Shown: positions 943 through 38,671 of the stretch, piece after piece
How positions within the stretch are numbered: the first letter of the stretch is position 1
Layout: each line of letters begins with the position of its first letter
NCBI GenBank assembly: GCA_963696305.1
Contig: CAVOJX010000015.1
Span: 44,505 to 108,504 of the forward strand
Origin: Bryobacterales bacterium
GTDB taxonomy: Bacteria; Acidobacteriota; Terriglobia; Bryobacterales; Bryobacteraceae
DNA length: 64,000 nucleotides
Direction: 5' to 3'
Made by a program: the position numbers and the translations under genes
Notes under the pieces: model-generated
Databases searched by the model: none
What the model was told of the DNA's origin: nothing
What the model saw: the letters and a program-made list of their open reading frames with translations, nothing else

Positions 943-961
943 GTTCGTTAGACTTAGTTTA

Positions 962-2668: not shown

Positions 2669-2675
2669 GTAAACG

Positions 2676-3332: not shown

Positions 3333-3420
3333 CTTTTCTTGCAAATTACACACTTCTTGCTATTCCGTAAGACCACTTGTCGAGATAGAACTTAATACGG
3401 ACATTAAGGAGAACACCGGA

Positions 3421-4392: not shown

Positions 4393-4430
4393 TTGCACCC
4401 GAAGAAAGGTTAAACAGGAGAAAACAGTAA

Positions 4431-8337: not shown

Positions 8338-8366
8338 CCAACGCCGTTGAACGCTTTGTCGAACGG

Positions 8367-8657
8367 TTGGAACAGCGCAACGCTGGAGCCCAGAACGCTC
8401 TTGCGAGATTACGGTCGAATCCCAATGCGGAAGGCGTCTGGCTGGATGATTTTACGCGCGCGCTGTTTCGCGATTTTCTGTTGGATAACGTGGACGGCTA
8501 TTGCTTCATATTAAGCGCGCTCGCGCGTCGGCATGCTCACGCGGTACCTGCTTCAACCATTGAAGACGCTTTAGCATCGTTGGCGCATCATGCGTTTTCC
8601 GAGGTTCTGCGCGCAAAAACGGAAGAGCTCCTGGAGAAGCATTTGGCGGTAGCATGA
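8367..8657 (+). CDS. Hydrogenase-cluster hypothetical protein (96 aa)
   Basis: TTG start. The stop overlaps the start of the NifU-Rieske gene (ATGA at 8654). No motif recognised. Confidence 0.5.
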   Translation: MEQRNAGAQNALARLRSNPNAEGVWLDDFTRALFRDFLLDNVDGYCFILSALARRHAHAVPASTIEDALASLAHHAFSEVLRAKTEELLEKHLAVA

Positions 8658-9508
8658 CAACTAGCGTGAAGGTGGAAGAAACCAACTTGGCGAGGCTTGC
8701 CGCGAAAGTGGACGCGGCTGATGCGGAAGTACGCACCTTAGACGCACCATCGCAAGCTAAAGCATTAGCGCTCAAGACCGCCATCGAAGAGTTCCACAAA
8801 GAAGGATTGATCCGCATCGTTCGCGCCCTCAAAGAAGATCCGCGCGGCAAAGAAATTCTCTTCACGTTGGTGGATGTTCCGGAAGTCTACGCTTTGCTTT
8901 CCATGCATGGCTTAGTCCGTGCGGACTTGCGAACACGAGTGTCGCGCGTCATTGATATGGTTCGCCCGTACATGCAGTCGCATGGCGGTGATGTTGAACT
9001 GGTCGACGTCACTCCAACCACTGTCTTTGTGCGCCTATCGGGAGCTTGCCACGGTTGCTCCATGTCCGCCCAGACCTTGCGTAACAGCGTAGAAGAAGCC
9101 ATTCGTGAGCACATCACGGAGCCCCTGAAGGTGGAACAGCTTACCAACGAGCCTACAACTGCCTTTATACCGCTCGGCATGTTAGCGAACAATGCTGCCG
9201 GTTGGCATCCAGGGCCCATGGCGGCGGATCTGAAGGACGGTAAGCCGGTAAGTATTAACGTTGACAAAATCTCCATTCTGCTCCTCCGAACGGAAGATAA
9301 AATCCAAGCCTTCCGAAACTCCTGCGCGCATATGGGCCTACCCTTGGATGGTGGCATGGTCGATTGCGAAGCGCACGCCATTACTTGTCCCTGGCACGGC
9401 TTTCGCTTTGACACAGTTAGCGGAGAGTGTTTGAACGCACCGGGTGCCCAGCTCGAGCCGTTTCCCGTAAGAATTGAAGAAGGCTGCATCTACGTGCGGC
9501 CCAACTGA
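8654..9508 (+). CDS. NifU-like / Rieske [2Fe-2S] fusion protein (HucE/HhyE-like putative hydrogenase electron-transfer protein)
   Basis: Central NifU C-terminal-type motif GACHGCSMS. C-terminal Rieske ligands CAHMG ... CPWHG. Confidence 0.85.
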   Translation: MTTSVKVEETNLARLAAKVDAADAEVRTLDAPSQAKALALKTAIEEFHKEGLIRIVRALKEDPRGKEILFTLVDVPEVYALLSMHGLVRADLRTRVSRVIDMVRPYMQSHGGDVELVDVTPTTVFVRLSGACHGCSMSAQTLRNSVEEAIREHITEPLKVEQLTNEPTTAFIPLGMLANNAAGWHPGPMAADLKDGKPVSINVDKISILLLRTEDKIQAFRNSCAHMGLPLDGGMVDCEAHAITCPWHGFRFDTVSGECLNAPGAQLEPFPVRIEEGCIYVRPN

Positions 9509-9517
9509 GGCTGATCC

Positions 9518-10666
9518 ATGCCTGTGAACCCTCAAGCACAAGTCTGGGTTGGCGCTCCATCCAAGGGCGGTTTGGCATTGCCGGATGCTCATCCAACTGA
9601 TGCCACCTTATACGGTCCGCGCGGCGTGTATTTGGACGATCAATACCTAATCGTTGCGGATACAGGCAACCACAGGGTGCTGATCTGGCATACCGCACCG
9701 AAATCGGACCATTCCAAAGCGGATATCGTGCTTGGTCAGCGGGATTTCGAAACCGAAGGGCCAAACGCGCGCGGTGCTGGTCCTCAAAACGGCTTGAACA
9801 TGCCCACAGGTGTGTCCGTTGTTGGCGGCAATCTAGTCGTTGCCGATGCCTGGAACCATCGTCTGCTTGTTTGGGAGGGCGTCCCGCAAAGCTCATTCAT
9901 GCCTCCCTCTGCCGTCATTGGTCAAGCTGATTTCGCTAGTGTGAATTGCAACCGTGGCCGTGATCGGGGTGGCACAACTTTCAACTGGCCCTTCGGATTT
10001 CTCATCTCCCGCGACAGGTGGTTAATCATGGATACCGGGAATCGCCGCGTCCTGGGCTGGCATATTTCGCCTCTCGATGGACGCCCAGCCGACTTCGTCT
10101 TCGGCCAGCCAGACCTTGTCAGCGGTGACGAAAATCGAGGTGCGTCGGCTTCTGCCTCCAGTTTTCGTTGGCCCCACGCCGCGGCCGAATTCGACGAAAT
10201 CTTATGGATTGCTGATGCCGGCAACCATCGGCTATTGGGCTGGCCGCTCAATGCCTCTTACGATTCGCCAGCCGCTCGAGTGCTGGGACAGCATGACTTT
10301 GTCTCCAATCAGGAATTCGTCATGGCGCGCCAAAGCGCGGAAACAATGCGCTTTCCCTACGGCATCGCCTCGGCTAATGGTTGGATGGCAGTTGCAGATA
10401 CGGCGAACAACAGAGTGCTCGGCTGGAGCTCGAGCAGTCAAACGCTTGCGGCCGATTGGGTATTGGGTCAACCCGATTTTCACTCCAACGGAGAGAACCA
10501 TTGGAAAGCCGTTACGCACCAAACCTTCTGCTGGCCATACGGCTTGTGCGCCCATCGCAACCTACTGGCCGTTGCGGATTCTGGAAATAACCGCGTCATG
10601 ATATGGAATGTACCCACTTTGGGTGACAAAACGGAAAACGAAAAGGAAACCGCGCTATGTGTTTAG
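9518..10666 (+). CDS. NHL-repeat six-bladed beta-propeller protein
   Basis: Six spaced repeats of the form (A/M)D(T/A/S)GN(H/R/N)R(V/L)(L/M).W: ADTGNHRVLIW, ADAWNHRLLVW, MDTGNRRVLGW, ADAGNHRLLGW, ADTANNRVLGW, ADSGNNRVMIW. Confidence 0.85.
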   Translation: MPVNPQAQVWVGAPSKGGLALPDAHPTDATLYGPRGVYLDDQYLIVADTGNHRVLIWHTAPKSDHSKADIVLGQRDFETEGPNARGAGPQNGLNMPTGVSVVGGNLVVADAWNHRLLVWEGVPQSSFMPPSAVIGQADFASVNCNRGRDRGGTTFNWPFGFLISRDRWLIMDTGNRRVLGWHISPLDGRPADFVFGQPDLVSGDENRGASASASSFRWPHAAAEFDEILWIADAGNHRLLGWPLNASYDSPAARVLGQHDFVSNQEFVMARQSAETMRFPYGIASANGWMAVADTANNRVLGWSSSSQTLAADWVLGQPDFHSNGENHWKAVTHQTFCWPYGLCAHRNLLAVADSGNNRVMIWNVPTLGDKTENEKETALCV

Positions 10667-10938
10667 CAATACCGGGCCGAGTCGAATCTATATTTGAGGC
10701 CAACGGCGCGCGCATGGGGCAAGTCGATTTCGGCGGCGTTCGAAAAGAAGTTTGCCTGGCCTACGTGCCTGAACTCCAAGTGGGTGACTACACCATTGTG
10801 CATGTTGGCTTTGCGTTATCGAAGATCGATGAAGCTGCCGCCCGGCAAACACTAAAAGTATTTGCCGAAATGGGTTTACTGGACGACGAATTGGCCCAAA
10901 TGAAAGAAACGGAAACAACCAATGCGGTACTTGAATGA
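10657..10938 (+). CDS. hypC: Hydrogenase assembly chaperone HypC/HupF
   Basis: Diagnostic N-terminus MCLAIPGRV, about 90 aa, overlaps its neighbours on both sides. Confidence 0.9.
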
Positions 10939-12034
10939 GTTTCGTGACGGTCCGACTGCGCAGCGCATTGCCGCTGAGATCCACTCCATAACTCACGGCC
11001 AATGGGCGCTGATGGAGGTTTGCGGAGGCCAGACGCACTCCATTATTCGCAATGGCATTGACCAAATGCTGCCGCCTAACATCGAATTAATTCATGGCCC
11101 TGGCTGTCCGGTCTGTGTCACTCCGCTGGAAGTCATTGACCGCGCGCTAGCCATCGCAGCCCAACCCGGAGTCATCTTCTGCTCATTCGGAGATATGCTG
11201 CGCGTTCCTGGCTCGCACGAAGATCTGTTTCAAGTAAAGAGCCGTGGCGGAGATGTTCGCGTGGTTTACTCTCCACTTGACGCCGTAAGATTAGCCGCCA
11301 AGCATCCTGAGAAGCAGGTCGTCTTCTTCGCCATCGGCTTTGAAACTACTGCGCCCGCCAACGCCATGGCCGTCCTCCAAGCCCGCCAAATCGGCCTTGA
11401 GAATTTCTCCGTTCTGGTTTCTCATGTATTGGTTCCGCCCGCCATCGAAGCCATCATGCAAAGCCCGAATTGTCGCGTCCAAGCGTTCCTCGCCGCTGGG
11501 CATGTTTGTAGCGTCATGGGTTACAACCAATACTTCCCATTAGCCGCCCAATACAAGGTGCCCATCGTCGTCACAGGCTTCGAACCGCTCGACATCTTAG
11601 AAGGCATCCGCCGCGCTGTACTGCAATTGGAAAAGCGCGAAGCGAAAGTGGACAATGCCTATGAGCGCATTGTCTCCGAAGCTGGCAATACTGTCGCTCG
11701 AGGTATCTTGAACCAGGTGTTCGTTGTTTGCGATCGTGCTTGGCGTGGCATTGGCGAAATTCCAAAGTCCGGCTGGAAACTAGCTCCCGAATTTGAATCC
11801 TTCGATGCGGAAAAGCGCTTCGATGTTTCCGGCATAACCGCCCAGGAATCGCCACTGTGCAAGAGCGGCTTAGTTTTGCAAGGCAAACTCAAACCGAATC
11901 AATGTCCGGCCTTCGGCAAAGAATGCACGCCGCGCAAACCTCTCGGAGCAACCATGGTTTCCTCAGAAGGTGCCTGCGCCGCCTACTATAACAACGGTCG
12001 CTTCCTGCCCGTTGAAGACTTGATCAATGCCTGA
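10922..12034 (+). CDS. hypD: Hydrogenase maturation protein HypD
   Basis: [10 protein letters not shown]-terminus, [18 protein letters not shown] and FxTT motifs. Confidence 0.95.
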
Positions 12035-13085
12035 CGCTCCCGATTTTTCCAACTGGACTTGCCCGCTGCCCTTGCGCGACTATCCCAACATCGTTATGGC
12101 GCACGGTGGTGGTGGCAAGCTCACCCAGGAACTCATCGAAAACCTGTTCCTTCCTGCATTTTCCTCGCCGGAATTATCGCCCATGTCAGATGCGGCTGTG
12201 TTGACCGTCGCGCCAGGTAGGCTTGCATTTTCCACCGACACTTACGTAGTGCGGCCGCTATTTTTTCCGGGCTCATCCATCGGCGACTTAGCCATTAATG
12301 GCACCGTTAACGATCTCGCTATGCAGGGCGCAAAACCGCTTTATCTCAGCGCCGGCTTCATCCTGGAAGAAGGTCTGGCAATAAATGTGCTAGCCCAAAT
12401 TGTGCAGCGTATGGGGGAAGCCGCCCGCGCCGCCGGAGTGCGCATTGTTACCGGCGATACGAAAGTCGTCGAGCGCGGCTCGGCCGACCAGATTTTTATC
12501 AATACCGCCGGTGTCGGCCTCATTCCTGATGCGGTCGATCTAGGCCCGCACAGAATCCGACCGGGTGACAAGGTTCTGCTGTCCGGCACCATCGGCGACC
12601 ACGGCTTGGCTATCATGAGTGTCCGCGAAGGCTTGGAATTCGAATCCCCAATTTGCAGCGATTGCGCTCCGCTCCACAATCTAGCAGCTGCATTGCTGGA
12701 ACATCCGCCCGACATTCGGATGCTGCGAGACGCCACCAGAGGCGGGATTGCGGCCGTCCTAAATGAAATGGCTCAGACCAGCAAACTCGGCATCGCATTG
12801 AACGAATCTGCCATCCCGATAAAGCACGAAGTACAGTCCGCCTGTGACTTGCTTGGTCTTGATCCGTTTTACGTTGCCAACGAAGGAAAATTCATCGCGA
12901 TCGTTGCCGCCGATCAAGCCGAAACTTTGACCGCCAAACTCCGAAGCTTACTCTTCGGCTCCAATGCCTGCATCATCGGCGAAGTTCAAACGTCGCAGCC
13001 TGGCATGGTCAGTCTGCGCACTCGTATGGGAACCCGCCGCATTGTGCCAATGCCATTAGGCGAACAATTGCCGCGTATCTGCTGA
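12027..13085 (+). CDS. hypE: Hydrogenase maturation carbamoyl dehydratase HypE
   Basis: AIR-synthase-like fold motifs ([16 protein letters not shown]) and the diagnostic C-terminal PRIC. Confidence 0.95.
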
Positions 13086-21212: not shown

Positions 21213-22045
21213 AGCCATTGGAAATTGGCGTCCTCTTCTGGGCCAAACCAGACGCGCGCCAGACTTTTCAGGAGGTCAAAAAATTCGGCCTCCGCGCCGG
21301 TCAAATCGGTTTCCCCGGCAACCTGCCTTTAGACGGCGCTGCAGACAACTGGCGGTCTGCTCTCTCCGGTGAAGCGTTCACACTAGTCACTGCGGTTTGT
21401 AGCTACGACGGTGAAATGTACTCCGACATTCCGACTGTAGAGGCCACCGTCGGCCTCATTCCTGAATCCACCCGAGCCCAACGCGTAGCCCGCACCAAAG
21501 CCGTATCCGACGTCGCCAAAATTCTGGGGATCGATTCCATCGCCTGCCACATCGGCGTCGTGCCTGCCGACACCGCCAGCCTTCGTTACCGTCAAGTGGT
21601 CGATCTCGCTCGCAACGTTTGCGATCACTGCGGCGCCAACGGCCAGCGCTTTACTCTCGAGACCGGACAAGAACCCGCCGACGAACTGTTGCGTTTCATC
21701 GCCGACGTAAAACGAGACAATCTGAAAATAAACTTCGATCCGGCGAACATGGTCTTGTATGGTAGTGATGATCCCATCGAAGCGTTGCGCACATTGGCGC
21801 CGCACGTCATCTCCGTCCATTGCAAAGATGGTGAATGGCCGCCCGAAGATCAACCAGGCGCCCTGGGTCTGGAAGTTGCCCTCGGCGAAGGCGAAGTGGG
21901 CATCGACATCTTTGTCCACACCTTGCGTGAAGTTGGCTATCAAGGTATCTTAAGCATCGAACGCGAATTTGAAAGTGCCGAACAGCGCCGTCAAGACATC
22001 ATTTCAGCAATCAAACTTCTCAAATGGTTAACCGGTCGCGATTGA
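21203..22045 (+). CDS. Sugar phosphate isomerase/epimerase (xylose-isomerase-like TIM barrel)
   Basis: The ORF is 21089..22045, but ATG 21203 (MQLEPLEIGV...) overlaps the upstream stop by 10 nt. The region before it is a shadow of the previous gene. Family-like blocks FTLETGQE, INFDPANM, HCKDG. Confidence 0.8.
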   Translation: MQLEPLEIGVLFWAKPDARQTFQEVKKFGLRAGQIGFPGNLPLDGAADNWRSALSGEAFTLVTAVCSYDGEMYSDIPTVEATVGLIPESTRAQRVARTKAVSDVAKILGIDSIACHIGVVPADTASLRYRQVVDLARNVCDHCGANGQRFTLETGQEPADELLRFIADVKRDNLKINFDPANMVLYGSDDPIEALRTLAPHVISVHCKDGEWPPEDQPGALGLEVALGEGEVGIDIFVHTLREVGYQGILSIEREFESAEQRRQDIISAIKLLKWLTGRD

Positions 22046-24717
22046 CTATTCGTCTTTTGTGGCTGTTGGCATTCAACGTTCTTCTTCTGCAAGCGCAAAC
22101 GCCTTCCGGCTTGCGTTGCGAATGGCAAACTCAGCCCATCGCCATACAAACAGATACGCCGCGCTTTAGCTGGATGATGTCCGGCACGCGTCCTGGCTTG
22201 TCCCAAACCGCTTATCGCGTGTTCGTCTCACACTCACATTCCGAAATCGCCAAGCATGTCGGTACAGAATGGGATTCAGGCCGCCTCGATTCTTCAGCAT
22301 CCTTACAAATCCGCTATGCCGGAACGAAACTAACCTCTTCCACCCCTTATTTTTGGACCGTCGAACTCTGGGATCAAGACGGCGCACCGCACTTCAGCGA
22401 TATCGCTACTTTTCAAACCGGCCTGCTCCGCCAAAACGATTGGAACGCGCTTTGGATCGCCGCCGCACAATCGCCTGAAAGAGAAACCAGTCTGCCACTA
22501 TTCCGGCGCGAGTTCAAAATCGACAAACGTGTCGCCCGCGCCATGGTCTACATTTCCGGACTCGGTCAATACGAACTCCACTTGAACGGCCAAAAGCTTG
22601 GCAAAGCTGTTCTTGCTCCCGGTTGGACAGACTATCGGAAAACTGTTCTCTATAACGCCTTCGACATCACAAACTCCCTCAAAAAAGGCGACAACGTTTT
22701 CGGCGTTTCCTTGGGCAACGGGATGTACAACGTCGAGCGAACAAAAGGCCGCTACACAAAGTTCAAAGGCAGTTTTGGTGAGCCCAAGTTGCTTTTTCAG
22801 GCGCAAATCACCTTCACTGACGGAACCAGCACGCAGATTGTCAGCGATCATTCCTGGTACACCGTTCAAGGCCCCATTACGTTTTCCTCTATCTACGGCG
22901 GAGAAGATTACGACGCCCGGCTCGAACAGCCGGGCTGGGACAAACCGGGCTTCAAACAGAAGGAATGGCTCCAAGCGCAGGAAACCGAAGGATCCGGTGG
23001 AAAGTTTGAAGCTCAACAAAGCCCGCCCATCGAAGTCGCGCAAACTTTCGATACCCGGAAAACCTCCGAACCGCAGCCCGGCGTCTTCGTATATGATCTT
23101 GGTCAAAACTTTTCCGGCTGGCCCGTCATTGCCGTCAAAGGTCCACGCGGCTCCTCGGTAAAACTAATCGCTGGCGAACTGCTCGACCGAAATGGCCTCG
23201 CCAGCCAGCGCAGTTCTGGCGGCCCACAGTGGTTCACTTACACACTCAAAGGCAACGGCGTGGAAGAATGGCATCCCAACTTCACTTATTGGGGCTTTCG
23301 CTATGTGCAAGTAGAACGCACTGCCGACGCAGGCGTCTATCCCGAAGTGCTCTCCGTTCGCGGTGAATTCACCCACGCCGCCGCCGAGCCTGTTGGAACA
23401 TTTGAGTCATCCAGTACTCTGTTGAACAACATCCACGAACTCATCGACAAAGCCATTCAAAGCAACCTGCAAAGCGTACTCACAGATTGTCCGCACCGCG
23501 AAAAACTCGGCTGGCTGGAACAATCGCATCTGGCCGGTTCCGCACTAACTTTTAACTTCGATCTCGCCACCACCTACGAAAAAATTGCGCAAGATATGGA
23601 CGACGCTCAACAGCCCGACGGTCTCGTACCCGACATCGCGCCCGAGTACACGGTTTTTGAAGCAGGCTTCCGCGATTCACCCGAATGGGGAAGCGCCATC
23701 GTCTTAGACCCCTGGCTTGCCTATCAAACTTATGGCGATACGGAAATCGTTGCCGCTCATTACGACGCCATGAAGCGCTATGTGGCCTATCTGTCCACCA
23801 AGTCGGAGAAAAACATACTTGCTTACGGTCTTGGAGATTGGTACGACATCGGCCCCGGCGATCCGGGCGAATCAAAACTCACCAGTCTCGGAGTCACTGC
23901 CACCGCGTTCTATTATCAGGACCTCGTGACGCTCTCAAAATGCGCGCATCTGCTAAACAAGCCGCAAGATGAAGCACTCTTTCGCCAGCAGGCTGACGCC
24001 GTGAAGGAAGCCTTCAACGCCAAGTTCTACAGTCCCGATATTCATGCGTACGATCACAACAGCCAGACTGCCTACGCTCTAGCTCTGGTTACCGGCATTG
24101 CGCCCGACGCTGACCGTACCATCCTGCTTGAGAAGTTGGTCAGCGACATCCGCGCGCACAATAACCACACAACCGCCGGCGACATCGGGTTTCATTACGT
24201 GGTGAAGGCCCTAACGGATGGCGGACGCTCCGATGTGCTGTTCGACATGTTGTCGCGCACCGACTCGCCCAGTTACGGCTATCAATTACAAAAAGGAGCA
24301 ACCGCCCTTACCGAAGCCTGGGACGCAAACCCCCAAAGCTCCCAGAATCATTTCATGCTGGGCCACGCCGAAGAATGGTTTTATCGCGGTCTCGCTGGAA
24401 TCGATTTCGATTACTCCCGTCCCCACGACCAGCGCCTCATCATCCAACCCGCTATCGTAGGCAATCTCACGTCTGCCGCTGCCACTTACGATTCGGTCTT
24501 CGGATTGATCTCCAGCTCTTGGCTGCGTTCCGAAGCCCAGCTAACTCTAACCATCGAGGTTCCGCCCAACCTGACAGCCCAAGTTATTTTCCCGGCAGCC
24601 CAAGTCGTTCCCGACACAAGCGCCGGGGTCAAGTTGCTCCGTTCCAGTGCCAACCAAAGCGTCTATCAAGTGCCATCCGGCCGCTACATCTTCCATTCAT
24701 CCCTACCGCCCCCGTAA
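22024..24717 (+). CDS. Secreted alpha-L-rhamnosidase (GH78 family)
   Basis: Signal peptide. N-terminal LRCEW...PRFSW...QTAYRVFVS pattern. Six-hairpin catalytic region with DCPHREKLGWLE. Confidence 0.8.
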   Translation: MVNRSRLTIRLLWLLAFNVLLLQAQTPSGLRCEWQTQPIAIQTDTPRFSWMMSGTRPGLSQTAYRVFVSHSHSEIAKHVGTEWDSGRLDSSASLQIRYAGTKLTSSTPYFWTVELWDQDGAPHFSDIATFQTGLLRQNDWNALWIAAAQSPERETSLPLFRREFKIDKRVARAMVYISGLGQYELHLNGQKLGKAVLAPGWTDYRKTVLYNAFDITNSLKKGDNVFGVSLGNGMYNVERTKGRYTKFKGSFGEPKLLFQAQITFTDGTSTQIVSDHSWYTVQGPITFSSIYGGEDYDARLEQPGWDKPGFKQKEWLQAQETEGSGGKFEAQQSPPIEVAQTFDTRKTSEPQPGVFVYDLGQNFSGWPVIAVKGPRGSSVKLIAGELLDRNGLASQRSSGGPQWFTYTLKGNGVEEWHPNFTYWGFRYVQVERTADAGVYPEVLSVRGEFTHAAAEPVGTFESSSTLLNNIHELIDKAIQSNLQSVLTDCPHREKLGWLEQSHLAGSALTFNFDLATTYEKIAQDMDDAQQPDGLVPDIAPEYTVFEAGFRDSPEWGSAIVLDPWLAYQTYGDTEIVAAHYDAMKRYVAYLSTKSEKNILAYGLGDWYDIGPGDPGESKLTSLGVTATAFYYQDLVTLSKCAHLLNKPQDEALFRQQADAVKEAFNAKFYSPDIHAYDHNSQTAYALALVTGIAPDADRTILLEKLVSDIRAHNNHTTAGDIGFHYVVKALTDGGRSDVLFDMLSRTDSPSYGYQLQKGATALTEAWDANPQSSQNHFMLGHAEEWFYRGLAGIDFDYSRPHDQRLIIQPAIVGNLTSAAATYDSVFGLISSSWLRSEAQLTLTIEVPPNLTAQVIFPAAQVVPDTSAGVKLLRSSANQSVYQVPSGRYIFHSSLPPP

Positions 24718-25878: not shown

Positions 25879-27111
25879 CTAGTCGACAGACCCGCGAACT
25901 CTGTAACTAGGCAGCAGCCCAAACAGTGCAGCTGCGCCAATCACCATCCCCAGCGATACCATCAGCACGGCATGATACGAACCCGTATGGTCGAACACCG
26001 CACCCATAATCAACGGCCCGGTCGCACCTGCTACCGCATACACGCACCACGTGTATCCATACAGCCTCCCAAACCGCTCCAGCCCGAAGTAACGAGTCAG
26101 TAAATATGGCACCACGTCTGATTCTGCACCCATTCCTACGCCTATCAGAATCGCGCTCGTAATCGCCACCGGCCATTGATATCCGCGTAGAACCAGCACA
26201 AATCCAAGCGCGCACAAGGTCAAAAGCAGCGCCGCCACGCGATTCGCGCGAAATCGATCCAACAAGTATCCGGTACCCAACTTGCCGCCAAGCGCTGCCA
26301 TGCCGGCTATCGATAACACAAGTGCCGCTTCAGCCGCCGCCGCTCCTTGGTCCGTCAGTAGCGCGGCCCAATGCGTGTTCAATCCGTTTGTCGCGAAAGA
26401 GAACAACAAAAGCGCACCTGCTATCCCCAGAAACGGAATCGACCATACGCCGCTCCTGCCTTCTTGCTTCCCGTCGCCTTCCGCCGGAAGCATATTTGCG
26501 CCTTCTGGCTCACGCAGGAACAAGCTCGCCAATGGCATCGCGATCACCAAGATAACCACTCCGAACACGCCATAAGCCGTGCGCCAACTGTAGTTACTGA
26601 TAAGCCATTGCGCTAGCGGAGGGAACACCATCGAACCCAACCCCGAGCCTGCCATCACCGAAGCCAGTGCTTGCCCCCTGTGTTTGTCGAACCAAGCGCT
26701 CACAACGCGCGCGTACGCGAGCTGCGTCGTTCCATTTCCCACCGCCCCTAGCACTACGTAGATGACATAAAGATGCCACAAATGCGGTGTCAAAAACGCC
26801 ATCGATCCAAACGCCAGGCCATAGACCAGGGTGCATGGCAAGACAATTCGACGCGCCGGATACCGATCCAATAGATGTCCCAGCACCGGCGAACAAACCG
26901 CCACCGTCAACGCTGCCAGCGTGAATGCCAGCGACACCTCCCCGCGTGACCAATGAAAGCTCAACGTCAGCGGTTTTAGAAATATACCAAACGTATATAC
27001 GACAATGGACGCGAAGCTGACAAACACGCCGCAGCAAGCCGTGATGAGCACGGCCGCGCGGTCATTTCGTTGCAGGTTCGGGCGGGGGTTGTGAACTGCG
27101 AGCATAGCCAT
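25879..27111 (-). CDS. MFS transporter
   Basis: 410 aa, about 12 predicted hydrophobic helices, typical MFS loop 2-3 motif (GHLLDRYPARR). Confidence 0.85.
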   Translation of the reverse strand: MAMLAVHNPRPNLQRNDRAAVLITACCGVFVSFASIVVYTFGIFLKPLTLSFHWSRGEVSLAFTLAALTVAVCSPVLGHLLDRYPARRIVLPCTLVYGLAFGSMAFLTPHLWHLYVIYVVLGAVGNGTTQLAYARVVSAWFDKHRGQALASVMAGSGLGSMVFPPLAQWLISNYSWRTAYGVFGVVILVIAMPLASLFLREPEGANMLPAEGDGKQEGRSGVWSIPFLGIAGALLLFSFATNGLNTHWAALLTDQGAAAAEAALVLSIAGMAALGGKLGTGYLLDRFRANRVAALLLTLCALGFVLVLRGYQWPVAITSAILIGVGMGAESDVVPYLLTRYFGLERFGRLYGYTWCVYAVAGATGPLIMGAVFDHTGSYHAVLMVSLGMVIGAAALFGLLPSYRVRGSVD

Positions 27112-27688
27112 GAATTGCCGATCGTTTGGCGCCTACCGCATGTGCCGCATCGCTCATCGCGTGGACACCGCTCGCGTCAATCCAGCGGTTGTAAAAATTG
27201 AAAAGCGCACAAACTGTAATTGCGTAATAAATCGCCTCATCGGTGTAGCCGCTCGCATGCAGAACGTCAATGTCCTCCAGTTGAATGGTGTACGACACGT
27301 GATTCACCTTCACCACAAACCGCATCAGAACCTTCTCGGCCTCCGTCAGCGAAGATGTCTCCATATCTGCGAGTACGCTGTCCACGAGTTCCTTACTGCC
27401 CAATAATTCCGCCGCGACCGCGGCGTGTGACTTCGTTCAAAACGGGCACTGATTCAAGCTGGATGTGTAAGCTGCAATCAATTCCCTGAAACCGGGCGAC
27501 AGCGGAGAAGCCTCTCTCATCATTTCCTGCGTGAACCGCTCCAGGTGTGCCGTCGCTTTCATCTTGAATGAGAACATGTGGAGTATCTGTGGATACTCCG
27601 GTCCCATTCGCTTCATCATTTCAATGGCGCGTGTGTAGTTGTCGTCGCCTTTGTGCGCTTCAACATCTTTCAAAAACATTGGTTCCAT
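27062..27688 (-). CDS. AhpD-like / carboxymuconolactone-decarboxylase-family peroxidase-related protein with in-frame TGA (probable selenocysteine, CxxU)
   Basis: ORFs 27437..27688 and 27062..27403 share one frame, separated by a single TGA (27437-27439). The joined sequence reads ...LSPGFRELIAAYTSSLNQCPF-TGA-TKSHAAVAAELLG...ALFNFYNRW..., so the TGA falls on the second Cys of the family motif CxxCxxxH. Confidence 0.75.
27410..27425 (-). promoter_or_regulatory. Candidate bacterial SECIS hairpin
   Basis: The mRNA 11 nt after UGA reads CGCCGC-GGUC-GCGGCG: a 6 G-C pair stem with a GGUC tetraloop. Confidence 0.6.
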
Positions 27689-27703: not shown

Positions 27704-30700
27704 TTAGAAAATGAACTTCATTGCTAGTTGTAGCAGGCGAGGCGGAGCTGCCTGCAAGATTTGCCCAAAGTCCGGAGACGCCAGATCGTTCTCCGGCAGC
27801 ATAAAGTTCGGATGATTCACCACGTTGAAAGCCTCGACCCGCAATTGCACCCGCGACGATTCTGTTACTGCGAAGTTCTTGAAAAGCGAGAGATCAACCG
27901 TCGCCAGCCCAGGTCCGCGTATCGCATTCCGGCCCTCGTTTCCAAACTCTCCCGGATTCGCTTGCGGCGTCAATTCTTGGAAAGCGCTGCGGCTCACCCA
28001 CTCATTAGGCGTGTGCGGTCCGTTGTTCGGATTCGACAACAAATTGGGGCGGCTTGAATAAAATCCTGTGATCTCTGGTGAAGTTCCCTCCTCCGGCGCA
28101 TTGTCGCTGTCATAAACTGTGAATGGCGTACCCGAGCTTAAGCTGATAATCGTGTTCAGCTGCCATCCATTCAGTATTTGCCGCGCTGCATACGGTGCTG
28201 TCTTCCACTGAGGTAGTGCATAGGTTCCACTCAACACAAATCGGTTCGTTGCATCAAAGAGCGACGGTCCATGCTCCGCGCGCAAGTCAAATGGGTTCTG
28301 AGCCAAATCGTTCTCGCCTGCCACCAGTGTGGGTGCCGAGCCTGCAATATTCAGCGAAGATACATAATCTAAGCTCTTTGACCACCAGTACGATGCTTGA
28401 AAAGACAGTCTTGAGCTCAACTGCCGCGAAAGCGAAACCTGCAGCGCGTTGTAAGTGGAGCTGTTGTTGTCGGCAATCAATCCCACCGAAGCGAACGCAC
28501 AGGAACCGGCCGCATTGCAATCCGCATATTCGCGTCGCTGATCGGCGTTGTTTGTTGTCGCTCCTAGACCGAAAATAGATGGATTGGCTTCAATAAATCG
28601 CGGTAAGTGCGTTCCCTTATTGCCCACATACCGGATATCCAGCAAGTAAGAACTGGCGAATACGTGTTCCACCGAGAAATTCCAGTTTTGCGAGTATGGC
28701 GGCAGCATGCCGGATTGAACTGTCAGTACCGTGGCTGGCCGCACAAATTGTTGTAGGTCGAACGGAGGCGTAGCGCCATTGTAAGGATTCGCGAAGTTCA
28801 TACCCGGTCCGGGTAGCTGATAGGCCTCAGTCCACGGCAGCGCGCTCACTCCAGCTTGTAACGGCCCTCCGGTCCCGTTCGTATAGCCATCGTAGAATAT
28901 CCCATAACCCGCCCTTATCGTTGTCTTCGCATTGCCAGTCGGGTCCCACGCTAACCCAATCCTCGGCATGAACTCTTTGTAGTCCACGGCGGCAATCCCT
29001 GCCGGAACGCCCTTATCGCCTGGAAATAGCAGCCCTTCTGGCGCACTCGGATCCACTACTGACTGCCGCCCAGGTGCCCACGCGTTCAAGCGCTTGCGGA
29101 TGTCTGTGAACGGAGTATTCACTTCATACCGAAGTCCGTAACTCAGCGTCAGCTTCGAGTTAACGCGCCATTCATCCTGCGCATAACCTCCTACAATCCA
29201 CTTACGCAGGCCGCGGTTAAAATCCCCTCCTCCCTGAAAGAATTGCACCGGCTGACCTAACAGGAAACTGGCAAACGAATCACTCGCCGGGAAAGGTGCA
29301 AATACAAAAAAGCCGTTGGTGGCAATCCCCAGCAATACGTTGATTTGCTGCCGGTCCACATCCATCCCGAATTTCAGGTTGTGTGTACCGTGCGTCCATG
29401 CCAGCGAATAGTATCCTTGATAATCATTCTGATAAGTATTCTGCGGTCCCGTGATCGGGTTGCCAATATCCGAATAGCCGCTAATAATCAGGTACGGATC
29501 GCCTAACTCCGAGGCCAGCGTAGGTTGGTAAGTGAATCCAAGATCGCTGGCAGGGCTATGATTCGTTGCCGCTCCCTCCAAAAAGACGTTGCGAAAGAAT
29601 GCCACTCGCGCTGTTTGCACTAATGCGGGAGAAAACAGGTGAACATATGACACCGTGGCTGAGTTCGTAGTGATATTGTCTGTCACCGGAAATCCGGGAA
29701 CTCCGGAGCCATTAATCGGCAGCGGATCTAACTCGTGCTGGGACGACGTTGAGTAGCGTGCAAAAAGCTGATCGCTATTGTCGAAGTAGTGATCCAGCCT
29801 AAAACCGCCTTGATCGTAGTTATTAGTCAGCAATTGCGTCGACGAATAAAGCTCCGGCCCGATATTCGGCAGCGGAATCAGCGCTTCTGCCTTAAGTGCA
29901 ATCGGGTTCAGTAGAAATGGCGGAATTACACCCGAAACTCCGTTATAACTGAATGGCTGACCCGCAAATTCATTGATCAGCGGTTCAGGATTTCCATTGC
30001 TGTCGATCAGTCCAGAGAAGTCGCCCGCGCGCTCCGCCGCCGTCGGAACAATCGCCGTCCGCGTTTCTCCTTGCTCGCTGCGCTGCCCTTCGTAATACGC
30101 GAAAAAGAAATCCCGGTTGCGCCTGATCGGTCCTCCGAAAGTCGCGCCAAATTGATTCTGACGCAGGGGTTCAGTTGACGCCGCAAAGAAGTTGCGAGCG
30201 TCCATCGCATTGTTCCTCAAATAGTCGTACACATCGCCGTGAAACTGATTGGTGCCCGATTTCGTCACCACGCTCGTCGTAGCACCGCTCGTTTCTCCAT
30301 ATTCCGGAGGAGCGTTGGATGTCAGTATTCGGAACTCCGTCACCGCGTCCGGAGGCGTACGAATCGCAAATCCTCCGTTCACGCTATCGACGTTGCTCAC
30401 TCCGTCAAGCAGATAGTTATTCGATTCGGGTGGCTCGCCATTCACCGCATACGCTTGGTTCTGGCGTGCAATACCACCAGCCTGCAACAGGCCGAATGTC
30501 AAAGGTGCTACGCCCGGCTGCAGCAGCCCCAATTGAGTTAGATTGCGCCCATTCAATGGCAAATCGACCGCGTCATGCGCCGAGATCACGTTTCCAATCG
30601 CCGAACTAACATCCACAGTTGCGGCCATCGCGCTCACTTCTTCTGTCTGTTTTGTTCCTGCCACCGTCAAGGTTACAGGTAAATTGACCACCCGATCCAC

Positions 30701-30997
30701 ATCTAAGCCAATGCCGGTCGTCTCAAAATCCGCGAAGCCCTTCGTCACTATCCGTAAGCGATATGTTCCCACCGGAAGGTACGAGAAGCGGAACTCACCG
30801 CTGGCCGACGAATTCTGATCCGCGCCAAATCCCGTAGATAAGTTCGTGACGGTGATCTGTGCTTTCGGCACTAAGGCGCCCGATGGATCAGTGATCTTCC
30901 CTTCAACTATGCCGGTAGGATCTTGGCAAAGCGCGAGCGACGTGAAAAGTGACAAAAAAGAAAGACCGGCCAAGGGCCGTTTGAATAATTGCAACAT
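27704..30997 (-). CDS. TonB-dependent-type outer-membrane receptor with N-terminal CarboxypepD_reg domain (Oar-like)
   Basis: Signal peptide, carboxypeptidase-regulatory-like Ig domain (GKITDPSGALVPKAQITVTN...GEFRFSYLPVGTYRL), plug region, about 1100 aa, terminal aromatic residue (KFIF). Confidence 0.9.
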   Translation of the reverse strand: MLQLFKRPLAGLSFLSLFTSLALCQDPTGIVEGKITDPSGALVPKAQITVTNLSTGFGADQNSSASGEFRFSYLPVGTYRLRIVTKGFADFETTGIGLDVDRVVNLPVTLTVAGTKQTEEVSAMAATVDVSSAIGNVISAHDAVDLPLNGRNLTQLGLLQPGVAPLTFGLLQAGGIARQNQAYAVNGEPPESNNYLLDGVSNVDSVNGGFAIRTPPDAVTEFRILTSNAPPEYGETSGATTSVVTKSGTNQFHGDVYDYLRNNAMDARNFFAASTEPLRQNQFGATFGGPIRRNRDFFFAYYEGQRSEQGETRTAIVPTAAERAGDFSGLIDSNGNPEPLINEFAGQPFSYNGVSGVIPPFLLNPIALKAEALIPLPNIGPELYSSTQLLTNNYDQGGFRLDHYFDNSDQLFARYSTSSQHELDPLPINGSGVPGFPVTDNITTNSATVSYVHLFSPALVQTARVAFFRNVFLEGAATNHSPASDLGFTYQPTLASELGDPYLIISGYSDIGNPITGPQNTYQNDYQGYYSLAWTHGTHNLKFGMDVDRQQINVLLGIATNGFFVFAPFPASDSFASFLLGQPVQFFQGGGDFNRGLRKWIVGGYAQDEWRVNSKLTLSYGLRYEVNTPFTDIRKRLNAWAPGRQSVVDPSAPEGLLFPGDKGVPAGIAAVDYKEFMPRIGLAWDPTGNAKTTIRAGYGIFYDGYTNGTGGPLQAGVSALPWTEAYQLPGPGMNFANPYNGATPPFDLQQFVRPATVLTVQSGMLPPYSQNWNFSVEHVFASSYLLDIRYVGNKGTHLPRFIEANPSIFGLGATTNNADQRREYADCNAAGSCAFASVGLIADNNSSTYNALQVSLSRQLSSRLSFQASYWWSKSLDYVSSLNIAGSAPTLVAGENDLAQNPFDLRAEHGPSLFDATNRFVLSGTYALPQWKTAPYAARQILNGWQLNTIISLSSGTPFTVYDSDNAPEEGTSPEITGFYSSRPNLLSNPNNGPHTPNEWVSRSAFQELTPQANPGEFGNEGRNAIRGPGLATVDLSLFKNFAVTESSRVQLRVEAFNVVNHPNFMLPENDLASPDFGQILQAAPPRLLQLAMKFIF

Positions 30998-31282: not shown

Positions 31283-32344
31283 TCAGATCCGAATAACCCA
31301 ATTCTTCTTGTAAAGCCCCCAAGCAGCCAAATACATCAGCAATGTAAATGCCAGCGCCCATAACAGCGATGCAATATACGGATTGCCCACCGGCGCAAAT
31401 AAAGTCCGGTAAAGCCAATCCTGCACCGTAATCCCCAGCGCCTCAGCCAGCAACTCCGAAAGCATGTAAATCGCGATCGCATTGCGACCAAAAATAAGAA
31501 ACGGTTTAAAGAACCGAGTCTTGCCGCAAATGTCCAACACCCACACAAACATCGCCAGAAGCACAAAGTCCAACCCTGCCATGAATAGGGAGAACGAACT
31601 GGTCCAAAGCTTCTTGTTAATCGGCAGCCATACATTGCAGATCATGCCCAGCGCCAGCAGCCCATTCCCGGCCACCAGCAAAATCGTTGTGCGCTCCGTC
31701 ATCGCTCTCGTAGATCGCACTATTCCCCCCGCCAAGATCCCAAACAATGCTGTAGCAATCGCGGGCAGGGTACTGACAATGCCCTCCGGGTCCCACGTCT
31801 TTGTGTTCGCATAGTTGTGTTTTCCCAAAACTACGCTGTCCACGTAGTGCGCCAGATTGCCTTCCACATCTAGCCTGCCCGCGCCATAACCGGGCACAGG
31901 TACCAACGTCATCAACAGCCAGTAACTGATTAGCAGAAAAACAATCCACCCGCCAATCCACTTCCAACTCGAACTGCGCATGTAAATCAACGACGCCGCG
32001 AAGTAGCAAATCGCAATCCGTTGCAACACCCCGAGAACACGCATCGTGGAAAAGTCGAAGTAGGGAAACAAATAAACCAGCAGACCAAGCGCATAGATAA
32101 TCGCGCTGCGGCGCAGAATCTTCCCAAACGAGTGCGGCGCCAGCGTAATCGCAATGCCCACAATGAAAAGAAAAGTGGGAAAAACAACGTCTGTGATTGT
32201 CCACCCATTCCAGAGTGAGTGTGACAGCGGCGTAAACGTGTGGTCGCCATCCCCCGCATTATTCACCAACACCATCAGGGCGATCGTCGCTCCACGAAAC
32301 GCATCAATGGATTGCAATCGATTCGGCTTCGGCTGAACATTCAT
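31283..32344 (-). CDS. Membrane acyltransferase, heparan-alpha-glucosaminide N-acetyltransferase-like (DUF1624/DUF5009)
   Basis: N-terminal RLQSIDAFRGATIALMVLVNN...W.G....D.VFPTFLF motif, multi-pass membrane protein. ATGA overlap with the ligase stop. Confidence 0.75.
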   Translation of the reverse strand: MNVQPKPNRLQSIDAFRGATIALMVLVNNAGDGDHTFTPLSHSLWNGWTITDVVFPTFLFIVGIAITLAPHSFGKILRRSAIIYALGLLVYLFPYFDFSTMRVLGVLQRIAICYFAASLIYMRSSSWKWIGGWIVFLLISYWLLMTLVPVPGYGAGRLDVEGNLAHYVDSVVLGKHNYANTKTWDPEGIVSTLPAIATALFGILAGGIVRSTRAMTERTTILLVAGNGLLALGMICNVWLPINKKLWTSSFSLFMAGLDFVLLAMFVWVLDICGKTRFFKPFLIFGRNAIAIYMLSELLAEALGITVQDWLYRTLFAPVGNPYIASLLWALAFTLLMYLAAWGLYKKNWVIRI

Positions 32345-33861
32345 TGGATAGATGAATGATACAGCGCTTCCAGCGCAGAGATTTCATCAGCCTCATCCGC
32401 CGTCTTGTCTTTACGCCAGCGCACTATCCGTGGACACCGCAGGGCGTACCCGCCTTTGTGACGCGCACTCCGCTGCACGCCATCGAAAGCCACTTCCAAA
32501 ACCACATCCGGTTTTACCAGAATTACCCGCCGCCCGAACTTTTCCGTCCTTCCTGCGCGCAGAACTCTGCTCAACTCCTTCACCTCGGCGACCTTCAATC
32601 CGGAATCGGTTTTCCCTACATTCGCAAATCCATCCGCGCTTCGAACCGCAATCGTGTAAGCGGAAAAATAGAGGGCGTTGTTTCCTGTTCCTCGTTCGGC
32701 CGCCGAAATCACCACGTCCAATGTTGCGAAAGCCCGTTTCAACTTCTGCCATGCCCCGCTGCGCTTTCCCGGTTCGTACAGGCTCCCTTTTCGCTTCAAC
32801 ACCAGGCCTTCATTGCCACGCGCTATCGCCTCTTTGAAAATCCGTCCCAACGCTTCTGTGTCGCCCGCGGCTCTCTGCTCTGAAACTCTCAGCATCACGG
32901 GCGAACCCCGCATCATGGTTTCTAAAGCGCCGCGGCGAACCTCCAGTGGCTCATCCATAATTAACCTGCCGTTGTGATAAATCGCATCGTAAGCCACGAA
33001 CACAACCTCCGCAACAGCCTTCTTAGCGATGCGCTGCTCAAGCAAATTAAAATCCTGAGGACGCCCGTCGCGCCACGCAACAATCTCTCCATCAACCACG
33101 CCGCTGCCCCCAATCCTTGCGCCTGCCTCAACAATCTCATGAAACGAGCGAGTTATATCCTCCATGCCACGCGAAAATATCTGCACGTGTCCGTTGTCAA
33201 AATGAACCTGCGCCCGGACTCCGTCAAACTTGTCCTCCACCATCCACATCTCCGGCTCCGTCAAGTCGTCTGGCCGCCCCAATGTCTTCGCCAGCATGAA
33301 TTCCATCGGATGAAAAATTCTCTCGGCAGATACCTCGCATGCCAGCGCCCGCGCCTCTTCCACCATGCGATGCGTCAATCCAATGCGAAGTGTACGCGTT
33401 AGACATCTAATGAAATACTTGATCGTCAGCGGCTTATATCGGCGATATATTTCAACCAACAGATCCTGCTTTTTAGAAGCATTCGCCAGCCGTTGATAAA
33501 GTTCGCAAGCCTCTTCCAGCGACATCGGCGTCTCCACCGCGATGCCGCTCAGCAAAAGACACGCCGTCTCACCCGCATCCCCCGTCGCATCGAAGCACGC
33601 GCGCATCGTGTCACCATCCCAGCCAACAGCCGTCTGCAGCGCGTGACGAATAATGCCTCGGCTAATCGATATCGTGCGCTTTTCTGCTGTCTGGAAAAGC
33701 GAATGCTTCACTTCAACCGTCGGTCCGGTCCCCAGTAACTGGACCGCCGTTTGCAAATCCGTTTCCTCTAACGCCTTTAGATAAGCGGCCAAAATCTCAA
33801 TCTTCTTCGCTTTACCAGGAAAACGCGCTATATCTTCGCAAACCACGGCTAGCCCGTCCAC
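32341..33861 (-). CDS. ATP-dependent DNA ligase (ligase-associated DNA damage response type)
   Basis: Adenylation motif I EDKFDGVR, motif-V-like EGLVLKR, about 506 aa, abuts the exonuclease gene. GTG start. Confidence 0.9.
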   Translation of the reverse strand: MDGLAVVCEDIARFPGKAKKIEILAAYLKALEETDLQTAVQLLGTGPTVEVKHSLFQTAEKRTISISRGIIRHALQTAVGWDGDTMRACFDATGDAGETACLLLSGIAVETPMSLEEACELYQRLANASKKQDLLVEIYRRYKPLTIKYFIRCLTRTLRIGLTHRMVEEARALACEVSAERIFHPMEFMLAKTLGRPDDLTEPEMWMVEDKFDGVRAQVHFDNGHVQIFSRGMEDITRSFHEIVEAGARIGGSGVVDGEIVAWRDGRPQDFNLLEQRIAKKAVAEVVFVAYDAIYHNGRLIMDEPLEVRRGALETMMRGSPVMLRVSEQRAAGDTEALGRIFKEAIARGNEGLVLKRKGSLYEPGKRSGAWQKLKRAFATLDVVISAAERGTGNNALYFSAYTIAVRSADGFANVGKTDSGLKVAEVKELSRVLRAGRTEKFGRRVILVKPDVVLEVAFDGVQRSARHKGGYALRCPRIVRWRKDKTADEADEISALEALYHSSIQ

Positions 33862-37312: not shown

Positions 37313-38671
37313 TCAACTCTCCCGTCCCACTGCAAGTTCCAATTCTTCCGGACTCATCGTGGGGCTCGCATCCATTTGTTGCAAAGGTATGGTCAACTCA
37401 ACTGTCGTACCAGCGCCGGGAGTCGAATGTACTTCCAGTGTCCCACGCAGCAGAGACGCGCGTTCGCGCATTGCGATCAAACCCAATCCGCGGCTTTCGC
37501 TCGATTTCAAGCCGCGTCCAAAATCAATAATAGTGATCACTAGATTCACAGCGTCAAATTTCAAATCCACTTCAGCGCGTTTCGCTCCCGAATGCTTGGC
37601 GGCATTATTCAAAGCTTCCTGCACGATGCGAAAACAATGCGTCGCTGGTTGGCCCACTATGCGTTCCGGCACGCCCTCAATATGCACCTTTGTTTCAATT
37701 CCTGTCTGCTTTTGGAAAACATCGGCAAACCACTCCACGCCTTTCACCAAACCGTAATCATCAATAACGGACGGATGCAGCATTTGCGAAAGGCTTCGCA
37801 TTTTTTCCAATGTGTTGTGTGTGATTTTTCGAATCTCGGTCAATTCCGTCCGCAAAGGAGAATCCGGCGGAATGCCCTTCTTTTCCGCCCGCGTCAGCAT
37901 CGCGCCCACCGCTGTCAAAATCTGCCCGAACTCATCGTGAAGCTCGCGTGAAACCGATCGCAAAACCTCCTCCTGAACCGTGATCAACCTGGCCGCCAGC
38001 ACACGCCGTTGCTTAGACATCGCCTCAATCCGCGCAAACAAACGGCGGTTGGAATAAATCGTATAAGAACTGCTAACCAGAATGCCGACGATCGTTGCCG
38101 CCAAAACCGCGTAGATATCGCCCTTCACGCCTTCATAGATCGACGCCACTTTGTTGTCCGCTTGCTCTTCGGCCTGGTTATTCTTTTCCAATAGATCGGA
38201 GACCAAAGCCGAAAGCGTATTCTGCTGCGTGAATAAACTCGTGCCGGCTAGAACGCGTGCATCCGTCTCGTGTCCGCTAGCTGCATCCGCAAACACTTGA
38301 CTGGAAGTTCTCGAAAACTCGTTCAGTGCCGTAGCTAAGGCGCTTGATCGGGCCGGGTCCAGTGAAAATTTCTGTTCACGGCCAATGGAATCCTGCAAAT
38401 CGTCGCCCAGCTTGTCGAATTCCGGCTGAAAATGAATCAGGCCTTGACTGGGTCCCGACGCCACCATATCCCGCACTCGCAGGCCAATCTGGTTTAAATC
38501 CGTCTCGGCGCGAATCAGCATTAAGCTATCATGACGGTTTAAATCAATCGTATCCGTCTGGAGTCGTCGCAACGTCCTAAGCTGGTACAGCGTATAAGCC
38601 GAGAAGCCTGCGACCGCCGCTAACGTAATGACCAATCCAATTAGCAAACGTAACGTTGGTGACTTGATCAT
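37313..38671 (-). CDS. Membrane sensor histidine kinase (HisKA_3 + HATPase_c)
   Basis: Two TM helices flanking an ~170-aa extracytoplasmic helical domain. H-box SRELHDEFGQILTAV. G-boxes DFGRGL and GLGLIAMRERA. Confidence 0.85.
   Translation of the reverse strand: MIKSPTLRLLIGLVITLAAVAGFSAYTLYQLRTLRRLQTDTIDLNRHDSLMLIRAETDLNQIGLRVRDMVASGPSQGLIHFQPEFDKLGDDLQDSIGREQKFSLDPARSSALATALNEFSRTSSQVFADAASGHETDARVLAGTSLFTQQNTLSALVSDLLEKNNQAEEQADNKVASIYEGVKGDIYAVLAATIVGILVSSSYTIYSNRRLFARIEAMSKQRRVLAARLITVQEEVLRSVSRELHDEFGQILTAVGAMLTRAEKKGIPPDSPLRTELTEIRKITHNTLEKMRSLSQMLHPSVIDDYGLVKGVEWFADVFQKQTGIETKVHIEGVPERIVGQPATHCFRIVQEALNNAAKHSGAKRAEVDLKFDAVNLVITIIDFGRGLKSSESRGLGLIAMRERASLLRGTLEVHSTPGAGTTVELTIPLQQMDASPTMSPEELELAVGRES

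Follow-up and report, generated by a model that had tools for sequence, protein, structure and literature searches.

Selenoproteins of the AhpD-like family (COG2128) carrying a CxxU motif, in which U stands for selenocysteine (Sec), were the fourth most abundant selenoprotein family of the Global Ocean Sampling (GOS) metagenomes, with 299 sequences (PMC2398784). The family had been recorded in a survey of bacteria in 2006, when Acidobacteria had three selenoprotein families (PMC1794560), and it is included in two later reviews, as COG2128 in 2022 (PMC9312934) and as "AhpD-like protein, TIGR01926, CxxU" in 2026 (PMC13188914). Among its relatives with two cysteines, AhpD of Mycobacterium tuberculosis has the relay residues Glu118, Cys130, Cys133 and His137 (PMC3141380), and DR1765 of Deinococcus radiodurans confers protection from H2O2, to which the mutant is sensitive, and requires its CxxC motif (PMC8945050). 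Here we report the analysis of a candidate member of this family in a stretch of 64,000 nucleotides from a Bryobacterales bacterium (contig CAVOJX010000015.1, positions 44,505 to 108,504), referred to below as the window. The gene in question lies on the minus strand, is interrupted by a single in-frame TGA at the second Cys position of a CxxC motif, and carries a short hairpin directly downstream of this codon that resembles a bacterial selenocysteine insertion sequence (SECIS).

The window gene agrees with the published AhpD-like selenoprotein family (COG2128/TIGR01926) in belonging to the same hidden Markov model (HMM) family, in having a CxxU motif with the predicted Sec in the second position, in having Cys-containing homologues, and in carrying its candidate SECIS directly downstream. 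The published sets consist mainly of marine metagenome reads, whereas this gene comes from soil Bryobacteraceae (Acidobacteriota), a lineage that further differs from them in a very uniform short SECIS, in a conserved gene order of TonB-dependent receptor, AhpD-like gene and major facilitator superfamily (MFS) transporter, and in linkage to selABCD in some genomes. An earlier note, made from the sequence of the window alone, had stated that CxxU proteins of this kind were predicted in computational surveys; they are indeed listed there (PMC2398784, PMC9312934, PMC13188914), with predictions in the Sargasso Sea and GOS selenoproteomes. The window protein shares the CMD/AhpD fold family and the E-x11-C-x2-C-x3-H spacing with M. 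tuberculosis AhpD and DR1765 (PDB 6K40), but has Sec predicted for the second Cys and no adjacent ahpC or peroxiredoxin gene, and is only distantly similar to the solved AhpD-like structures (E = 1e-13 to 1e-16). Two other families of the superfamily with Sec in a CxxU-type motif, NF041238 (AhpD_rel_CFYUT) and NF053654 (GroundWater_YciW), do not include it, the scores being 42.5 against a cutoff of 175 and 24.2 against 310, respectively. From the comparative sequence evidence presented here, it is very probable that positions 27688-27062 of the minus strand are a single gene, encoding an AhpD-like thiol/selenol oxidoreductase of 208 residues, in which the UGA at codon 84 is decoded as selenocysteine.

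AhpD-like reading frame and its internal TGA codon

A single frame of the minus strand starts with the ATG at 27688 and ends with a TGA at 27062-27064, and its sole internal stop is the TGA at 27437-27439, codon 84; the earlier note had described the frame and its single TGA with these coordinates, all of which are correct. Translation across the TGA gives MEPMFL...SSLNQ-C-P-F-*-T-K-S-H-AAVAAELL...FNFYNRWIDASGVH... For profile and HMM scoring of the 208-residue product, Cys was put in place of the internal stop. The product matches the Pfam carboxymuconolactone decarboxylase domain (CMD, PF02627) with 37.6 bits against a cutoff of 23 over residues 47-124, a match that spans residue 84. It also matches NCBIfam TIGR01926 (peroxidase-related enzyme of the AhpD/CMD superfamily) with 97.9 bits against a curated cutoff of 81.8, and the AhpD core domain TIGR00778 with 28.1 bits against 27.8. 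The scores above the TIGR01926 and PF02627 cutoffs bear out the assignment, first made in the earlier note, of a CxxCxxxH motif of the AhpD/CMD family with TGA at its second Cys. Because the CMD match crosses the TGA, each half alone would be a truncated domain, again as proposed. Among solved AhpD-like structures, the product matched 2pfx (E = 7e-16) and 6k40, the D. radiodurans protein DR1765 (E = 8e-14), as well as 2oyo, 3c1l and 2prr. The CxxC of these structures aligns to C81 and position 84, and the sequence matches fix the predicted fold as AhpD-like. The residues Glu69, Cys81, Sec84 and His88 are invariant in orthologues and keep the E-x11-C-x2-C-x3-H spacing of the relay, with Sec as the second Cys.

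An orthologue scan with one genome per species recovered 80 loci, all from Bryobacteraceae or other Acidobacteriota metagenome-assembled genomes, whose proteins are full-length and 64-88% identical to the window protein. TGA stands at exactly codon 84 in 81 of 81 genome sequences (the 80 loci and the window), with no interruption of the alignment, and is kept in 119 of 119 distinct sequences once metagenome loci are added to the Bryobacteraceae and Acidobacteriota genomes. The same position is occupied by Cys in 89 more distant homologues, and at the DNA level the TGA is also aligned with the second CxxC Cys in 33 distinct Cys-form sequences; the CxxC homologues are about 50-60% identical to the window protein. 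TGC or TGT at this codon in the Cys-containing homologues had been predicted in the earlier note.

The gene caller broke the window gene into pieces of 83 and 107 amino acids, as had been anticipated for standard gene callers. A different error was seen in the closest database proteins, which read C-P-F-W at the motif (26 of the top 120 homologues; P0001, P0002, P0011-P0036 and others). This reading indicates that metagenome gene callers had switched to genetic code 4 and taken the TGA as Trp, and such mistranslation on short contigs has placed wrong protein sequences in public collections. Separately, eight homologues (P0003-P0010; 323-336 amino acids) were found to have a duplicated or fused architecture, in which a full CxxC domain is preceded at the N terminus by a further, incomplete copy of the C-terminal domain half.

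The two fragments returned by gene callers, together with an additional stop codon in one relative, might be taken as signs of a pseudogene, in which a nonsense mutation or an assembly error truncates an ordinary CxxC AhpD-like gene. The relative in question (locus L026) has an extra in-frame TAG at codon 54 (its positions 3160-3162; CAG in the window), a point that also counts against an intact recoded gene, and has Tyr in place of Cys within the conserved segment ITVCALF; either decay of this copy or faulty assembly may be the cause. However, the other 79 of the 80 genome copies have no other stops or frameshifts, the TGA lies at the identical codon in all 119 distinct sequences from independent assemblies, and an independent Logan assembly has a 16-kb contig identical to part of the window. 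The ratio of nonsynonymous to synonymous substitution rates (dN/dS) in comparisons of the window with orthologues is about 0.08 downstream of the TGA (codons +11 to +99) and about 0.065 upstream (51 codons), values that point to purifying selection on both halves but are approximate, dS being near saturation. The earlier note had named further lesions in relatives as a ground for refuting recoding; an extra nonsense codon occurs in just 1 of 80 genome copies. The pseudogene explanation, which we regard as extremely unlikely, was therefore rejected on the comparative data.

Production of two polypeptides was considered as well: an 83-residue N-terminal product would be followed by a C-terminal product from a downstream restart, with the hairpin serving in the coupling of termination and reinitiation. 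In-frame TTG and GTG codons are available downstream (for example at 27403), and gene callers chose such starts. Yet the segment T-K-S-H-A-A-V-A-A-E-L-L, which precedes any restart and includes the catalytic His of CxxCxxxH, is conserved as protein. Its first four residues, T-K-S-H (+1 to +4), are conserved despite variable codons, the variation at +1 to +3 being synonymous, and this protein-level conservation implies that the stretch just after the UGA is translated. Moreover, the CMD domain continues straight through the site, as do the alignments with solved structures, and the Cys-form homologues are single chains. On these comparative grounds the two-polypeptide reading was rejected as well; we consider it scarcely credible.

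Hairpin downstream of the UGA codon

Decoding of the UGA as selenocysteine would depend on a SECIS element in the mRNA, and the hairpin CGCCGC-GGUC-GCGGCG that the earlier note had placed 11 nucleotides past the UGA, with G and U of the loop at +22 and +23, is located as claimed. Its 5' arm CGCCGC occupies positions 27425-27420, the loop GGUC 27419-27416 and the 3' arm GCGGCG 27415-27410, so that the third base of the His88 codon doubles as the first base of the stem. With the U of UGA counted as 1, the loop is G21 G22 U23 C24, and the isolated 20-nucleotide hairpin has a folding energy of -12.4 kcal/mol. We compared it with the bacterial consensus model of Zhang and Gladyshev as summarised in PMC13188914. 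The apical loop of 4 nucleotides falls within the range of 3-9, the upper stem of 6 bp within 4-16 bp, and the distance of 17 nucleotides from UGA to loop (the 11-nucleotide spacer plus the 6-nucleotide stem arm) within 16-37; the folding energy lies below the minimum free energy threshold of -7.5 kcal/mol, and at least one G stands in the first two loop positions (GG or AG). The flanking loop positions N1 and N2 are able to pair (G..C or A..U), as they do in the published bacterial SECIS pattern (PMC13188914).

The fdhF element of Escherichia coli, taken from the genome, has its GGUC loop at nucleotides 22-25 and an 11-nucleotide spacer. It is an experimentally defined SelB-binding SECIS. The closeness of the window hairpin to the fdhF geometry asserted in the earlier note is essentially correct, with an offset of one nucleotide. 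Both elements have a GGUC apical loop and an 11-nucleotide spacer, and the G and U are at nucleotides 22/23 in the window and at 23/24 in fdhF, so that the window loop is one nucleotide nearer to the UGA. The window hairpin further differs from fdhF in its stem, 6 bp of perfect G+C pairing that lacks the bulged U17, in having no conserved lower stem back to the UGA, and in the occurrence of a second allowed loop, AGUU, among hairpins of its type.

Evidence for constraint at the RNA level comes from the comparison of Sec-form and Cys-form genes. In Sec forms, codon entropy is 0.10-0.63 bits at positions +4 to +10 (CAC GCC GCG GUC GCG GCG GAA), compared with 1.4-1.9 bits for the remaining Ala and Val codons of the gene and 1.6-1.8 bits for the same codons in the 33 distinct Cys-form genes. 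The six stem pairs are formed in 99.6% of cells of the Sec-form alignment, and all six are present in 110 of 119 Sec forms versus 4 of 33 Cys forms, in agreement with the expectation of the earlier note that the hairpin would be conserved in TGA-containing forms only. At stem pair 4, where the majority have C-G, seven sequences have U-A, a change of both partners, and one has the intermediate U-G. The loop is GGUC in 100 of the 119 Sec forms and AGUU in the remaining 19, with no mixtures, so that loop positions 1 and 4 covary from G..C to A..U around an invariant central GU. Two neighbouring codons account for the difference between the loops, each changed silently at its third position (GCG/GTC to GCA/GTT), and positions 1 and 4 look like a seventh pair closing the GU dinucleotide. 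Cys forms, in contrast, have 17 different sequences at the loop positions among 33 distinct genes. When genes are matched for the peptide, all of them encoding HAAVAAE, 99 of 105 Sec forms have the complete hairpin with an xGUx loop, as against 1 of 8 Cys forms (Fisher p ~3e-7, a value that overstates independence, the sequences being related).

The element is also unique within the window. On neither strand of the 64 kb is another TGA followed by a GGUC, AGUU or GGUCU loop closed by 5 bp or more, no further in-frame TGA candidate in the window has a comparable hairpin, and an all-GC stem with a GGUC loop occurs in only 1 of 60 TGA-joined frame pairs, that of the AhpD-like gene. Together, the alignments indicate selection on the hairpin at the RNA level, confined to genes with TGA at the codon. 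Such a clean natural case of a SECIS is unusual, and the matching of Sec with Cys forms allows RNA-level constraint to be told apart from protein-level constraint.

Selenocysteine machinery and gene neighbourhood

A complete Sec apparatus is present in the lineage, and in two relatives it lies beside the AhpD-like gene. In one of them (L074, positions 52-3591), selA (462 bits vs 268), selD (381 vs 125) and tRNA-Sec (RF01852, 79.5 vs 47) are followed by the AhpD-like gene. In the other (L172, positions 7337-12596, a wider view of the 2.27-Mb contig of locus L062), tRNA-Sec (76.1 bits), selD, selA and selB (328 vs 242) precede an AhpD-like gene that begins 50 nucleotides after selB and is split by the gene caller into 83 and 115 amino acids. 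All the Sec genes of both loci score above curated or gathering cutoffs, and such a cluster may be a "selenoprotein operon". A search with an acidobacterial SelB showed this factor to be widespread in Acidobacteriota, Acidisarcina polymorpha being one of the named matches.

At five loci, a second gene with an in-frame TGA was found directly downstream of the AhpD-like gene, namely in L172 (12593-13846, equivalent to 3627-4880 of L062) and in four metagenome loci (L133, L139, L141 and L150). It encodes a DUF3179 protein with the TGA at a UxxC motif (VATY-U-TLCH), and DUF3179 with UxxC/T is a catalogued selenoprotein family. Gene callers break it into pieces of 161 and 248 amino acids, and its TGA is followed by the conserved hairpin ACACC-GGUCU-GGUGU with GGU in the loop. 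The occurrence of the same kind of element in a second gene supports the hairpin as the SECIS of this lineage.

These observations bear on the possibility that the UGA is read through without selenocysteine, a suppressor or near-cognate tRNA inserting Ser, Trp, Cys or Gly and the hairpin acting as a generic stimulator of pausing or read-through. Candidates include the tRNA-Sec-like "allo-tRNAs" of Acidobacteria, where unusual tRNAs have been proposed as nonsense suppressors (PMC5389517), and the window itself contains no Sec machinery. Against this stand the placement of the codon at a redox position where homologues have the Cys of CxxC, the classical signature of a Sec/Cys pair; a hairpin with the loop and spacing of the SelB-binding fdhF element that fits the bacterial SECIS model; and the presence of selC, selD and selA beside the gene in two relatives (with selB in one). 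TGA is, besides, an ordinary stop in this organism, terminating other genes normally: it ends 11 of 36 long frames of the window as well as the AhpD-like gene itself. Read-through without Sec thus appears very improbable, and every check proposed in the earlier note that was run, from the orthologue alignment to the distribution of the hairpin, supports the predicted selenocysteine recoding.

Several further results, like the TAG in L026, weigh against selenocysteine decoding at this locus. A tRNA scan of the 64-kb window detected no tRNA, tRNA-Sec included; tblastn probes with E. coli SelA, SelB and SelD, which did match loci L062 and L074, had no match in the window, and an NCBIfam screen of 20 open reading frames, including the larger ones of the window, revealed no Sec enzymes in it. 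Single-sequence folding of a 66-nucleotide stretch gave z = -0.24, the hairpin not being exceptional in DNA so rich in G+C, and Rfam returned no SECIS match, either in a scan of the whole window at gathering thresholds or in a permissive scan of 27300-27500. Since Rfam bacterial SECIS models are clade-specific, the latter result is uninformative; with no support from the z-score or from Rfam, the case for the hairpin is built on comparison. The covariation, in turn, possibly reflects few evolutionary events, as each of the two sets, the seven U-A and the AGUU sequences, may come from a single clade. Lastly, the enzymatic function is assigned by homology, the nearest characterised relative being DR1765.

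The coordinates of the predicted gene, its key codons and the surrounding features are collected in Table 1. The upstream TonB-dependent-receptor-like gene ends 15 nucleotides before the start codon of the AhpD-like gene, and the start of the downstream MFS gene overlaps its last 50 nucleotides (27062-27111). A receptor homologue is located upstream in 41 of the 80 loci and an MFS homologue at the same overlapping position in 43 of the 80, and Cys-form relatives have such neighbours too. The recurring overlap suggests translational coupling of the AhpD-like and MFS genes, and the AhpD-like gene is probably co-transcribed with both neighbours. With these two genes at its sides, there is no adjacent ahpC peroxiredoxin gene, for which reason we name the product AhpD-like and not AhpD.

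Table 1. Positions of the predicted AhpD-like selenoprotein gene, its motif codons, the candidate SECIS and other genes of the window
Feature	Position	Strand	Basis or remark
Predicted AhpD-like (TIGR01926/CMD) selenoprotein gene	27062..27688	minus	208 codons including the predicted Sec84; frame, HMM matches, orthologues
Glu69 codon	27482..27484	minus	12 residues before Cys81; E in 100% of sequences (codon -15)
Cys81 codon TGC, first position of the CxxU redox motif	27446..27448	minus	invariant among Sec forms
UGA predicted to be read as Sec84, second residue of CxxU	27437..27439	minus	TGA conserved; Cys in distant homologues
His88 codon CAC, His of CxxUxxxH	27425..27427	minus	CAC in 80, CAT in 1
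Candidate SECIS hairpin CGCCGC-GGUC-GCGGCG	27410..27425	minus	6-bp G+C stem, 4-nucleotide apical loop, 11-nucleotide spacer after UGA
Zone of suppressed synonymous variation	27407..27442	minus	codon -1 TTT to codon +10 GAA; marks RNA-level constraint
TonB-dependent-receptor-like outer-membrane protein	27704..30997	minus	PF13620 (CarboxypepD_reg) and PF25183 (OMP beta-barrel)
MFS transporter (lactate or oxalate/formate-type)	25879..27111	minus	NF049980 170.8 bits, TIGR00890 110.6 bits, both below cutoffs
DNA ligase, rhamnosidase and two histidine kinases, as a group	32341-33861, 22024-24717, 788-2668, 37313-38671	minus, plus, plus, minus	

Elsewhere in the window, genes for the small and large subunits of a [NiFe]-hydrogenase occupy positions 3421-6056 and match NiFeSe models below cutoff, and a likely hydrogenase maturation protease gene begins just past position 6100. 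The hydrogenase was ruled out as a second selenoprotein, as the C-terminal motif of its large subunit, DSCLVCTVH, has Cys. Two convergent duplicated permease genes of the ADOP family, which is typical of Acidobacteria, lie at 53729-56461 (plus strand) and 56754-59495 (minus strand) with TIGR03434 scores of 848 and 868 bits. The ATP-dependent DNA ligase, the alpha-L-rhamnosidase and the two UhpB/NarX-like sensor histidine kinases form the ordinary context.

Proposed decoding, chemistry and significance

The anatomy of the hairpin and the E. coli paradigm suggest how the codon would be decoded. A ribosome arriving at the UGA would have the hairpin 11 nucleotides downstream, its GGUC loop presenting G22 and U23. 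The hairpin would bind the C-terminal domain of SelB carrying Sec-tRNA(Sec), and the tethered factor would compete with release factor 2 to deliver Sec once the UGA occupies the A site, so that Sec would be inserted in place of termination. The identical triplet without a hairpin would then end the gene at 27062-27064. In the folded protein, Sec84 would form, by homology, the E-x11-C-x2-U-x3-H centre of the AhpD fold together with Cys81, His88 and Glu69. The selenolate could attack a peroxide or an oxidised partner, after which Cys81 would resolve the adduct to a selenenylsulfide that is re-reduced by some donor. We infer a peroxidase or AhpC-reducing activity by homology to DR1765 and M. tuberculosis AhpD.

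Selenocysteine generally takes the place of the attacking residue. By analogy, Sec84 probably replaces the catalytic, attacking Cys and not the resolving one. Position 84 is aligned with Cys133 of M. tuberculosis AhpD, which we take to be the residue activated by a Glu118-His137-water relay, as was reportedly described by Nunn in 2002 and Koshkin in 2003. The wording of another source is different, Cys130 being called "essential" in M. tuberculosis AhpD (PMC3141380). In TxxC homologues (P0040, P0056 and P0071; L089, positions 3241-3252), the first Cys has been lost and the second kept; retention of the second position alone suggests that the position occupied by Sec is indispensable. Given the Cys133 alignment and these variants, the statement of the earlier note that the resolving Cys is replaced is probably wrong.

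A broader scenario can be put forward only as a doubtful one. The AhpD-like protein, sometimes with its DUF3179 UxxC neighbour, might be the main client of the Bryobacteraceae Sec apparatus and might act as the redox part of an envelope module with the TonB receptor and the MFS transporter, not as a partner of AhpC. In the same scenario, the SECIS would represent a lineage-specific minimal class with effectively a 7-bp stem closing a flipped-out GU.

The window gene is very probably a real but ordinary selenoprotein gene, whose family, motif and mechanism have already been described, and no concept is changed by it. Three features may be mildly new: the uniform minimal SECIS with alternating GGUC and AGUU loops, the location beside selABCD and a DUF3179 selenoprotein gene that some genomes show, and the order of receptor, AhpD-like and MFS genes. 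For annotation, the consequence is practical, as the gene is now split into "hypothetical" fragments of 83 and about 107 amino acids or mistranslated with Trp, and at least 119 related sequences are affected in the same way. Once the fragments are joined, a conserved redox enzyme of an abundant soil bacterial group is regained, and the comparative data point to the use of selenocysteine by Bryobacteraceae.

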